Positions 41,504 through 43,049 of a stretch of DNA of 64,000 bases are shown here, piece after piece; within the stretch, counting starts at the first letter, position 1; each line of letters begins with the position of its first letter. The stretch is from assembly GCA_038061835.1 (NCBI GenBank), contig JBBTYJ010000015.1, positions 3,907 to 67,906 of the forward strand, in the 5' to 3' direction. The notes under the pieces are model-generated. The model saw only the letters and a program-made list of their open reading frames with translations, made no database searches and was not told the origin of the DNA. The stretch is from Patescibacteria group bacterium (GTDB lineage: Bacteria; Patescibacteriota; Minisyncoccia; Phycocordibacterales; Zambryskibacteraceae). Made by a program: the position numbers and the translations under genes.

Positions 41504-42112
41504 TTAGATTAGAGTCTTAAGTACCTTAAAATCTTCTTTAAGGGTATCGAGCAGATGCTGATTGTAAATTGCGGCAGCGGGGTGATAAAGAGGAATGAAT
41601 TTAAAGGTCAGACCTTGAGAATTTATATCTAAGGTCTGACCTTGGAAGACTTTGCCGTGTAATTTACTTATAGAATCCAGTTCCCATTCAAGACCATATC
41701 TCGTCATCACATATTGCATTGAGAATCGACCGAGCGTTGCTACCACTTTCGGTTTAATAATTTCAATCTGACGATCCAAAAACGGCGCATAGATTTCTAT
41801 CTCGTCGGGATACGGATCGCGATTACCTGGTGGACGATCTTTGACAATATTAGTCACGTACACATCCTTCCTGTCTATGCCAACAGAAGTTAAAAGTATG
41901 TCCAAGACCTTTCCTGCCCGCCCGCAAAACGGCTTGCCGGTCTTGGCTTCGTTTTCCCCTGGTGCCTCGCCGATAAACATTATGTCAGCTGAATGATTTC
42001 CTTCTCCTATTACCGGGAAATACTTGTTCTTTACTCGTTCGGCATAAAGCGGTGAGGCCACAAGACCAATAATCTCGTTCTTAATTTTTTTTAATTCTTC
42101 ATCACAATTCAT
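41504..42112 (-). CDS. Uracil-DNA glycosylase, family 4 type
   Basis: GEGNHSADIMFIGEAPG motif and 4Fe-4S-type Cys pattern; 202 aa. Confidence 0.8.
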   Translation of the reverse strand: MNCDEELKKIKNEIIGLVASPLYAERVKNKYFPVIGEGNHSADIMFIGEAPGENEAKTGKPFCGRAGKVLDILLTSVGIDRKDVYVTNIVKDRPPGNRDPYPDEIEIYAPFLDRQIEIIKPKVVATLGRFSMQYVMTRYGLEWELDSISKLHGKVFQGQTLDINSQGLTFKFIPLYHPAAAIYNQHLLDTLKEDFKVLKTLI

Positions 42113-42959
42113 TTATTTCGTTCATGACGGGTTCTGTATTAAAATTTTTGCCGAGAAATTCATTCAATAATTTTGGATTCTTTTTTATGTCTGAGCAAAG
42201 CACAGTTCTGTTTTCCAAAAGTGCTTTTTTGTCGTTGGTTGAGAGCGAAATCAGACAAGTGATCGGGTGAAGCGCCTCGCTTTCAATCATATCCTGCAGA
42301 CTTCCTTTTTCAGGATAATTCCACCCGATCATAGTCAGATTCTGACAGATTCCATAATGAATAGCAGTGCTTGAGAACTTGGTATTGGTCACAAGCCAAC
42401 AGCCAGTAATGTGCCGATTTGAAGCGCCATAATCAAAAACATTGTCGCGCAAATCATCAAATCTTGCCTTAATATAGAGAACTACTTTCAAATCGGATTT
42501 TGTACCCAGATCATTATGAAACTTTGCTTCAATCATTATTAGTTCTTTTTCGTTGTAAGCCACCACGTCAACTTCGTGCGCCACACATTCGCCAAGCACA
42601 GTTTGACGAGTCTGACATTTGTAACCCTTGGCTTCAAGCACTTTGGCAATAAAATCTTCAAACGGAAAACCTGACGGTCCGAGATCCATCACTGCTCGGC
42701 GGAGAGAATAACTTCTAGCAATCGGTTTGCTTATTTTCTGAAGTACAGAAAAGGCGTGTCTGTAAATATCGTTAGTAGTCATTTCGTTGTGAAGCTCTGG
42801 CCAGATATGCGACCTTACTTGTTCTACGGCTTCTTCCGTCGCGCCAGCATGAAAAAGAGAGGCCATGAGCTTCTCTTCATCAAAAATTTCCCGCTCCCCG
42901 TTCGCCTTGAGAACTGTTACTTGTTTGCTTAGTTGTGTCATTTCATCATTATACCTCAC
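42102..42959 (-). CDS. ATP-cone domain fused to PD-(D/E)xK restriction-endonuclease-like (Mrr_cat-type) domain
   Basis: N-terminal ATP-cone (VLKANGEREIFDEEKLMASLFHAG...), then FEDFIAKVLEAKGY...VDVVAY...IMIEAKFH (D...ExK); overlaps the UDG gene by 11 nt. Confidence 0.55.
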   Translation of the reverse strand: MRYNDEMTQLSKQVTVLKANGEREIFDEEKLMASLFHAGATEEAVEQVRSHIWPELHNEMTTNDIYRHAFSVLQKISKPIARSYSLRRAVMDLGPSGFPFEDFIAKVLEAKGYKCQTRQTVLGECVAHEVDVVAYNEKELIMIEAKFHNDLGTKSDLKVVLYIKARFDDLRDNVFDYGASNRHITGCWLVTNTKFSSTAIHYGICQNLTMIGWNYPEKGSLQDMIESEALHPITCLISLSTNDKKALLENRTVLCSDIKKNPKLLNEFLGKNFNTEPVMNEINEL

Positions 42960-43049
42960 AAAACTACTTCAATATTATCCATTAATACAAAAAGAAAGCC
43001 GCCCCAGAGAGAGGTCGGCTCCTTTGTGGCGGCAATGTTCGAGTGATAT

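Follow-up and report, generated by a model that had tools for sequence, protein, structure and literature searches.

A predicted ATP-cone-gated nuclease and an overlapping uracil-DNA glycosylase gene in a Patescibacteria genome: probably two ordinary chromosomal genes rather than a dedicated pair

Does the overlap of a nuclease gene with a uracil-DNA glycosylase (UDG) gene mark a dedicated system? The question is raised by a 64,000-nucleotide stretch of a Patescibacteria group bacterium contig (JBBTYJ010000015.1; "the window" below means this whole stretch), in which a gene for a nuclease that combines an ATP-cone with an Mrr_cat-type PD-(D/E)xK domain runs into the start of a gene for a family-4 UDG. 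The original prediction, made from the letters of the window, proposed that the two form a restriction or repair module dependent on the nucleotide pool and on uracil. We compared the locus with its relatives in the candidate phyla radiation (CPR) and beyond, and the explanation that we consider probable is a plainer one. The two would be ordinary chromosomal genes, co-transcribed as part of an extended run of housekeeping and repair genes on one strand of a Paceibacteria/Zambryskibacteria-type genome and encoding a nucleotide-gated nuclease and a UDG free of an iron-sulfur (Fe-S) cluster; they would be neither a dedicated pair nor a defense system.

For the nuclease, the composition put forward in the original prediction was borne out. 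Both Pfam domains score above their cutoffs in the window protein: the ATP-cone at 26.1 bits against 25.8, which is borderline, and Mrr_cat at 25.1 bits against 21 over residues 97-203 (residue numbers follow the 285-aa open reading frame, ORF). In a mixed alignment, the ATP-cone and Mrr_cat were matched in 95 of 95 members (best ATP-cone E = 6e-9) and a C-terminal domain, AF1548-like_C (PF22357), in 71 of 95. With a 95-sequence alignment as input, AlphaFold2 gave a model with a pLDDT of 92.1 and a pTM of 0.86. The predicted fold comprises the beta-hairpin lid and four-helix cone of an ATP-cone and a restriction-endonuclease-like alpha/beta core with an E...D...ExK motif. Structural neighbors of this core are MspJI/AspBHI, Can2/Card1/Cdn1 and NucC, along with PD-(D/E)xK repair nucleases such as NucS. 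The C-terminal domain is likely a nucleic-acid binding module. A search of the PDB with the N-terminal 95 residues as a single sequence returned no match, and a family profile and a fold search were needed.

Conservation was assessed in 150 divergent representatives of the family. Residues E101, D131, E144, K146, R166 and D169 are invariant and H128, E129 and N192 are nearly so; H128, E129, R166 and D169 belong to the region of the active site. The stretch VDVVAY...IEAKFH, which had been read as the nuclease signature, supplies the catalytic D...ExK (D131, E144 and K146). Four cysteines (C125, C205, C235 and C255, or C119, C199, C229 and C249 in the 279-aa form of the protein described below) are also invariant or nearly so family-wide, and three of them are present in AF1548 of Archaeoglobus fulgidus.

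The ATP-cone is the textbook allosteric switch of ribonucleotide reductases (RNRs) and of NrdR. When the family profile was aligned to Escherichia coli NrdR, residues K18, E24, F26, K30, L31 and Y84 of the nuclease corresponded to NrdR K53, E59, F61, K65, L66 and Y131, respectively. In NrdR these residues cover the adenine and form a hydrophobic pocket, and Y131 discriminates ATP from dATP (bioRxiv 10.1101/2025.03.28.645925). Across the 150 representatives, K18 (97%), F26 (90%), K30 (96%), Y84 (95%) and G21 (within 90-97%) are conserved; E24 is kept in 50-80%, and conservation of L31 is not strict. Where RNRs have KRDG, the nuclease family reads K-A/S-x-G, without the Arg. Since the counterparts of the NrdR contacts are largely conserved, the cone looks competent to bind adenine nucleotides.

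A mode of action can be proposed for such a protein. To cleave duplexes, PD-(D/E)xK enzymes as a rule have to form dimers or larger assemblies. Upon binding of ATP or dATP, the cone would shift the oligomeric state of the protein, and the shift would turn the metal-dependent nuclease on or off. The model for this step is provided by RNR and NrdR, in which binding of ATP or dATP to the cone alters quaternary structure (bioRxiv 10.1101/2025.03.28.645925). The C-terminal helix-hairpin-helix (HhH)-like domain would keep the nuclease on DNA by sequence-independent contact, and the outcome would be nucleic-acid cleavage tied to the adenine-nucleotide/dNTP state of the cell. Nucleotide binding, oligomeric switch, nuclease activity and substrate are all parts of this scheme that we infer from sequence and analogy. 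We favor DNA as the substrate because of the HhH-like domain and the company of repair genes in the CPR and Levybacteria-type loci described below.

The nuclease family is large. With the single sequence as query, 3406 proteins matched at E <= 1e-3; all of the top 120 have 258-299 aa and identities of 67-100%. Representatives of 50%-identity clusters gave 1128 matches at the same cutoff, of which 434 reach E <= 1e-30; of the best 150, nearly all have a length of about 265-335 aa and nearly all can be aligned from one end to the other. Members occur in Patescibacteria and Bacteroidota. A profile search added many of the latter (Cyclobacterium, Algoriphagus, Roseihalotalea, Saprospiraceae), which carry database names such as "restriction endonuclease", "ATP cone domain-containing protein", "ATPase" and "Holliday junction resolvase-like". 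We conclude that the ATP-cone/nuclease/HhH-like family is widespread and vertically inherited, with a length of about 280 aa and a fixed architecture. It is already visible in databases through its Pfam domains, its NCBI names and the 1Y88 structure. In the literature we found no description or test of an ATP-cone-nuclease fusion, only a 2007 prediction for AF1548 from the Global Ocean Sampling (GOS) data; nor did we find a characterized system in which such a nuclease is combined with a UDG, as the original prediction had surmised.

A shorter form of the nuclease was observed in one CPR subclade (loci L026-L037, L045, L046, L048, L062 and L065; for example L036:5983-6702). There the protein stops at about residue 227-239 and is without the HhH-like domain, which is therefore dispensable in some lineages.

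The second gene was identified correctly as a family-4 UDG. Its product reaches 187 bits with TIGR00758 (NCBIfam; cutoff 125) and matches PF03167 at E = 4e-32. Compared to the UDG of Sulfolobus tokodaii (PDB 4ZBX) it gives E = 1e-46 and, by eye over the printed alignment, roughly 50% identity. Motif A (GEAPG, residues 48-52), motif B (HPAAA, residues 177-181) and the conserved Phe and Asn are all present. The cysteines of 4ZBX (in C-x2-C, VKCRPP and ACSPYL), which we take to be the four [4Fe-4S] ligands of family 4, align to L17, S20, D92 and A109 of the window UDG, and none of 83 CPR orthologs in the alignment has Cys at any of these four positions. As judged from this alignment, the UDG is a clusterless family-4-type enzyme whose Fe-S cluster was lost lineage-wide; it is otherwise unremarkable and functional-looking.

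Whether the two genes belong together was addressed by mapping the window genes onto 80 loci with nuclease relatives from GTDB species genomes; 80 additional metagenome loci led to the same result. A collinear block is shared by 70 of the 80 GTDB loci: a sigma-like gene (orf358), orf415, mltG, mnmA, the nuclease gene, a variable interval, the UDG gene, a fragment of alaS, orf443 and infA. Within the interval the order is invariant (Pfam assignments): nuclease, mgtC, cas4-like, ogt, PolB-like exonuclease, UDG, pepF and alaS fragment, of which mgtC, cas4-like, ogt, the exonuclease and pepF are optional. Downstream sequence exceeds 1.5 kb in 65 of the syntenic GTDB loci. A same-strand UDG gene is present no more than 6 kb away in 58 of these 65, at a distance from the nuclease gene of <=0 nt (9 loci), 1-100 nt (9 loci), 100-700 nt (20 loci) or >700 nt (20 loci). 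In the other 7, UDG is absent and the alaS fragment is retained. The junction of mnmA with the nuclease gene is the tighter of the two, with a gap of <=150 nt in 54 of 67 loci.

We also pooled 110 CPR loci, each with at least 3 kb of downstream sequence, and recorded the first gene recognized after the nuclease. This was mgtC in 36, UDG in 25, a gene for a Cas4-like PDDEXK_1 nuclease in 25, pepF in 6, a convergent dinB in 4, the alaS fragment in 3 and ogt in 2, while none was recognized in 9. UDG was found within 6 kb downstream in 73 of the 110. The nuclease gene thus heads a variable slot in CPR that is rich in genes for DNA repair and nucleotide sanitation. The arrangement in the window is best read as a loss of optional genes from a longer row, by which nuclease and UDG were brought together, so that their juxtaposition is a derived state of the subclade of the window, in which the optional genes are missing.

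Several features of the slot between the nuclease and alaS were seen in Paceibacteria-type loci. Its contents vary among a Cas4-like PDDEXK_1 nuclease, Ogt, a PolB-like 3'-5' exonuclease, an HD 5'-deoxynucleotidase, MazG, an orotidine monophosphate (OMP)-decarboxylase/phosphoribosyltransferase (PRTase) fusion, MgtC and oligopeptidase F (examples are L044:6850-7960, L036:7133-7840, L060:6839-7456, L051:11081-11596, L039:7373-8725 and L008:6825-7247). A dUTPase was considered for the gap of about 420 nt that separates nuclease and UDG in many loci; the candidate was dropped, as the gene there encodes an MgtC-family membrane protein.

Outside this synteny the partnership disappears. Ten Levybacteria-type loci, whose nucleases are 43-48% identical to that of the window, show none of its synteny and have UDG in 0 of 10. 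A gene for a DUF2079/lysylphosphatidylglycerol (LPG)-synthase membrane protein lies upstream in 9 of these loci and a convergent dinB downstream in 5. An RNR or NrdR neighbor, considered as the reason for the ATP-cone, was rejected, the upstream gene in the Levybacteria-type loci being the membrane protein gene. UDG is likewise found in none of 8 non-CPR contexts, mostly from Bacteroidota. In 6 of these 8 a gene for a beta-CASP/RMMBL metallo-beta-lactamase is next to the nuclease gene, often overlapping it, and in a seventh it is one gene away. Other companions there are Usp, PPK2, a P-type ATPase, HSP20, thymidine/AMP-phosphorylase-like and phosphoribosyl pyrophosphate (PRPP)-synthetase-like proteins, and PAS-kinase/Crp-type regulators. 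The Bacteroidota-type cluster around the nuclease (non-CPR relatives L081, L083, L084-L089 and L170-L172) resembles a dormancy or hypoxia regulon. A beta-CASP partner in CPR was also considered and rejected, with no such gene in the window or in the 80 GTDB loci.

These comparisons do not bear out a dedicated nucleotide-pool/uracil module: UDG is the first gene downstream in 25 of 110 loci, overlaps or abuts the nuclease gene in 9 of 65, and is absent from all Levybacteria-type and non-CPR loci. What survives of the expected conservation of gene neighborhood is a nuclease-UDG link within one CPR lineage; no co-occurrence was found outside it.

The placement in a defense island envisaged for the pair found no support either. 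A PADLOC search with the nuclease, UDG and ten neighbors gave no system-level match, only trivial matches at the level of domains, among them a weak local one to PDC-S02 (E = 4e-4, covering 60 residues). The neighbors are housekeeping genes, and neither a methyltransferase nor another defense gene was detected near the window nuclease by Pfam and PADLOC analysis of them. A scan of IMG/VR viral contigs with a family-profile pattern, and limited to what that pattern can detect, found no relatives of the nuclease. Averaged over 40 species loci, identity to the window protein amounts to 61% for the nuclease and 66% for UDG, as compared to 56.5% for mnmA, 50% for mltG and 53% for the alaS fragment. 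Housekeeping synteny, conservation, the lack of a PADLOC system and the lack of IMG/VR relatives together point to a vertically inherited, core-like gene rather than a restriction system. A defense system was rejected on the trivial PADLOC matches, and a phage origin on the pattern-limited scan.

How do the other explanations fare against two ordinary genes? It could be speculated that both proteins serve one pathway, in which UDG removes uracil, the nuclease incises or processes DNA with an abasic (AP) site or uracil when the dATP/ATP state permits repair synthesis, and the genes are coupled for stoichiometry. The shared strand and the 11-nt overlap would fit, as would the presence of UDG within 6 kb in 73 of the 110 pooled loci, the repeated occurrence in the slot of Cas4-like PDDEXK_1, Ogt, PolB-like exonuclease, HD 5'-deoxynucleotidase and MazG genes, the convergent dinB of half of the Levybacteria-type loci, and the NucS-like repair nucleases among the structural neighbors. 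However, direct adjacency and overlap are the exception, the commonest immediate neighbor is an unrelated membrane gene (mgtC), UDG is missing from 7 otherwise syntenic loci and from all Levybacteria-type and non-CPR loci, and the mnmA junction is the better conserved one; we therefore regard a joint pathway as distinctly unlikely. The Bacteroidota operons suggest a more serious rival, namely that the nuclease serves the turnover of RNA or nucleotides, and not DNA repair, when cells are dormant or short of energy; low ATP, sensed by the cone, would release breakdown that feeds salvage, and the UDG neighbor would be coincidental. This is consistent with the beta-CASP/RMMBL gene found directly downstream or one gene off, amid stress genes, in 7 of the 8 non-CPR contexts. 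It would also fit CPR bacteria, which rely on salvage and are not known to make nucleotides de novo. On the other hand, the beta-CASP gene does not extend to the window or to the GTDB CPR loci, a Rad51-N/HhH-like C-terminal fold typically binds duplex DNA, and the CPR neighbors are genes of DNA repair and not of RNA decay. We consider this explanation unlikely, though the least so of the rivals.

Two further possibilities concern the nuclease domain itself. The PD-(D/E)xK fold could be catalytically dead and serve as a DNA binder, which would make the protein an NrdR-like transcription factor responsive to ATP/dATP. NrdR sets the precedent of a DNA-binding domain joined to an ATP-cone, some restriction-endonuclease folds are known to bind DNA without being active, and 4 of 95 members show a weak NA-iREase1 match. 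Yet E101, D131, E144 and K146 are 100% conserved in the 150 divergent representatives, which is unexpected for an inactivated nuclease and argues for an active one; a dead fold is thus very improbable. Least credible of all is anti-phage restriction by the pair or by the nuclease alone, acting as an Mrr-like type IV enzyme on foreign DNA (modified or with uracil, for example) at times of disturbed nucleotide pools. The Mrr_cat match, the likeness of the core to MspJI/AspBHI, Can2/Card1/Cdn1 and NucC, and the PDC-S02 match could be cited for it. But an Mrr-type N-terminal DNA-recognition domain and a nearby methyltransferase or defense gene are missing, the PDC-S02 match spans only 60 residues, relatives on viral contigs were not found in the pattern scan, and a fixed syntenic position with housekeeping-level conservation is the opposite of what is seen for patchy, fast-evolving defense genes.

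Several points weigh against our preferred explanation of two ordinary genes for a nucleotide-gated nuclease and a clusterless UDG. In roughly two thirds of the CPR loci a same-strand UDG gene still follows downstream, and repair genes are overrepresented in the slot, which leaves room for some functional link to DNA repair, though not specifically to UDG. The loci of both samples were taken in order of their similarity to the query, which biases the samples towards one CPR class. The score of the window protein for the hidden Markov model (HMM) of the ATP-cone is just above threshold, and with K-A/S-x-G in place of KRDG the nucleotide specificity could differ from that of RNR. The beta-CASP/RMMBL and stress-gene partners in Bacteroidota mean that the substrate could be RNA rather than DNA. 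Finally, our literature search found no biochemical characterization of any family member, AF1548 included.

The boundaries and signals of the locus are collected in Table 1. The 285-aa ORF of the original prediction is present (42102-42959, minus strand, with a GTG start at 42959), but its start is probably the ATG at 42941, which yields 279 aa. This ATG, 18 nt downstream of the GTG, is likelier because the database protein P0001, 100% identical to the window nuclease, has 279 aa and because the N-terminal extension is absent from homologs (residues 2-5 are gaps in >90% of the 150 representatives). The stop codon TGA of the nuclease gene (42102-42104) is situated inside the UDG start region, in agreement with the 11-nt overlap first reported, and the two genes are probably translationally coupled. 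However, 1-8 nt overlaps are frequent between adjacent minus-strand ORFs of the window, which is almost entirely minus strand, so the overlap alone does not single out this pair. The -11 junction is confined to the closest relatives (L001-L003 and L009); elsewhere the junction is -8 or -4, or there are gaps of up to 2.3 kb.

Table 1. Positions of genes, domains and candidate signals in the window
Feature	Position	Strand	Basis or remark
ATP-cone/PD-(D/E)xK/HhH-like nuclease, coding sequence, 279 aa	42102..42941	-	ATG at 42941 (probable start)
ATP-cone, residues 15-89	42693..42917	-	Pfam PF03477
PD-(D/E)xK nuclease domain, Mrr_cat/AF1548 type, predicted catalytic E101, D131, E144, K146	42285..42671	-	
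C-terminal helical domain AF1548-like_C, Rad51-N/helix-hairpin-helix-like fold	42105..42284	-	
Family-4 uracil-DNA glycosylase (UDG), 202 aa, ATG start at 42112-42110	41504..42112	-	
Overlap of nuclease stop and UDG start, 11 nt, ATGAATTGTGA	42102..42112	-	read from sequence
Terminator-like GC hairpin GGAGCCGACC...GGGGCGGCU, then U-run UUUCUUUUUG	42989..43022	-	RNA fold
TATAAT hexamer, 6 nt upstream of ATG at 42941	42948..42953	-	read from sequence
orf205, 205 aa	43050..43667	-	
alaS fragment, 431 aa	40208..41503	-	
Sigma-like protein, 358 aa	46910..47986	-	Sigma70 region 4 + HARE-HTH

The hairpin lies downstream of an inserted gene, orf205, and upstream of the nuclease gene. The TATAAT hexamer may be a -10 box, which would give a leaderless or nearly leaderless nuclease-UDG transcript. 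A scan for consensus promoters and terminators upstream of the nuclease gene called neither hairpin nor hexamer, so both stay at the level of the sequence. The orf205 gene is inserted between mnmA and the nuclease gene, and its product had no Pfam or PADLOC match; it occurs in only one of the 80 GTDB loci (L003, 60% identity).

The wider surroundings in the window include rpoA, rpsD, a C39-like peptidase gene, infA, the catalytic fragment of alanyl-tRNA synthetase (AlaRS), mnmA, mltG, the sigma-like gene and leuS. The alaS gene encodes 431 aa only, covering positions 1-434 of the 552-position tRNA-synt_2c model, and the remainder of a normal AlaRS (about 870 aa) is missing. The adjoining gene encodes an unrelated membrane protein, and the short form is kept across the syntenic CPR loci. 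The sigma-like protein is the most conserved of the syntenic block, with a mean identity of 74.5% over 40 species.

Taken by itself, the locus is unremarkable; what makes it worth noting is a slowly evolving family of putative ATP-cone nucleases, with a lineage-wide Fe-S-free family-4 UDG as a side result. If the cone does control the nuclease in this family, the reach of ATP/dATP sensing would widen to the cleavage of nucleic acids. Found in genome-reduced CPR bacteria and in Bacteroidota, the protein is a cheap biochemical target, with about 280 aa and a confident model. A bolder idea, which we think unlikely to be right, is that the nuclease is the first ATP-cone-controlled enzyme outside ribonucleotide reduction, an endonuclease for the repair or processing of DNA whose license to act depends on the dATP/ATP state, reused by Bacteroidota in an energy-stress regulon with a beta-CASP nuclease. 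Such an enzyme, acting for instance after UDG, Ogt or the Cas4-like enzymes encoded beside it in CPR, would incise DNA only when dNTPs are at hand for resynthesis, and this licensing would be an adaptation of nucleotide-auxotrophic, salvage-dependent bacteria.

How, then, does the locus compare with known systems? The only solved relative of the nuclease is AF1548 (PDB 1Y88), a protein from structural genomics, which covers the nuclease and C-terminal domains (E = 2e-24; 6e-47 with the profile). It was predicted to be restriction-endonuclease-like with the catalytic residues D38, E51 and K53 (Yooseph et al. 2007, PMC1821046), and these align to D131, E144 and K146 of the window nuclease. Unlike the latter, AF1548 has no ATP-cone, its solved chain beginning about 20 residues before the nuclease core. 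In NrdR and at the N-terminal activity sites of class I and III RNRs, the output of the cone is a Zn-ribbon DNA binder or a reductase, whereas here it is a nuclease; the sequence similarity between those cones and the nuclease family is weak (profile E of about 0.1). Among family-4 UDGs, those of Thermus thermophilus (UDGA), Thermotoga maritima (TM0511) and S. tokodaii have motifs A and B and the conserved Phe and Asn in common with the window UDG, but they carry the four [4Fe-4S] cysteines, all of which are replaced in the window protein, so that it departs from family 4 in this respect. Mrr and the type IV enzymes share with the nuclease an Mrr_cat match above threshold. In place of their Mrr_N winged-helix recognition domain, however, it has an ATP-cone, and its gene is not in a defense island, which sets it apart from them.

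The closest parallel in design comes from Can2/Card1/Cdn1 (with CARF), Cap4 (with SAVED) and NucC, which likewise are ligand-gated PD-(D/E)xK nucleases, although the similarity is limited to the nuclease core. Pfam detected neither a CARF nor a SAVED domain in the window nuclease, and no CRISPR or cyclic-oligonucleotide-based antiphage signaling (CBASS) genes were found nearby, so it does not belong to this group. Those effectors sense the cyclic oligonucleotides of defense systems and are encoded in CRISPR or CBASS loci; the window nuclease, in contrast, has an ATP-cone and stands in a housekeeping context. The family is, on the reading of its domains, a ligand-gated PD-(D/E)xK nuclease with the ATP-cone as its putative sensor, and its design would parallel that of the CARF- and SAVED-gated effectors, with a signal that is metabolic rather than immune.

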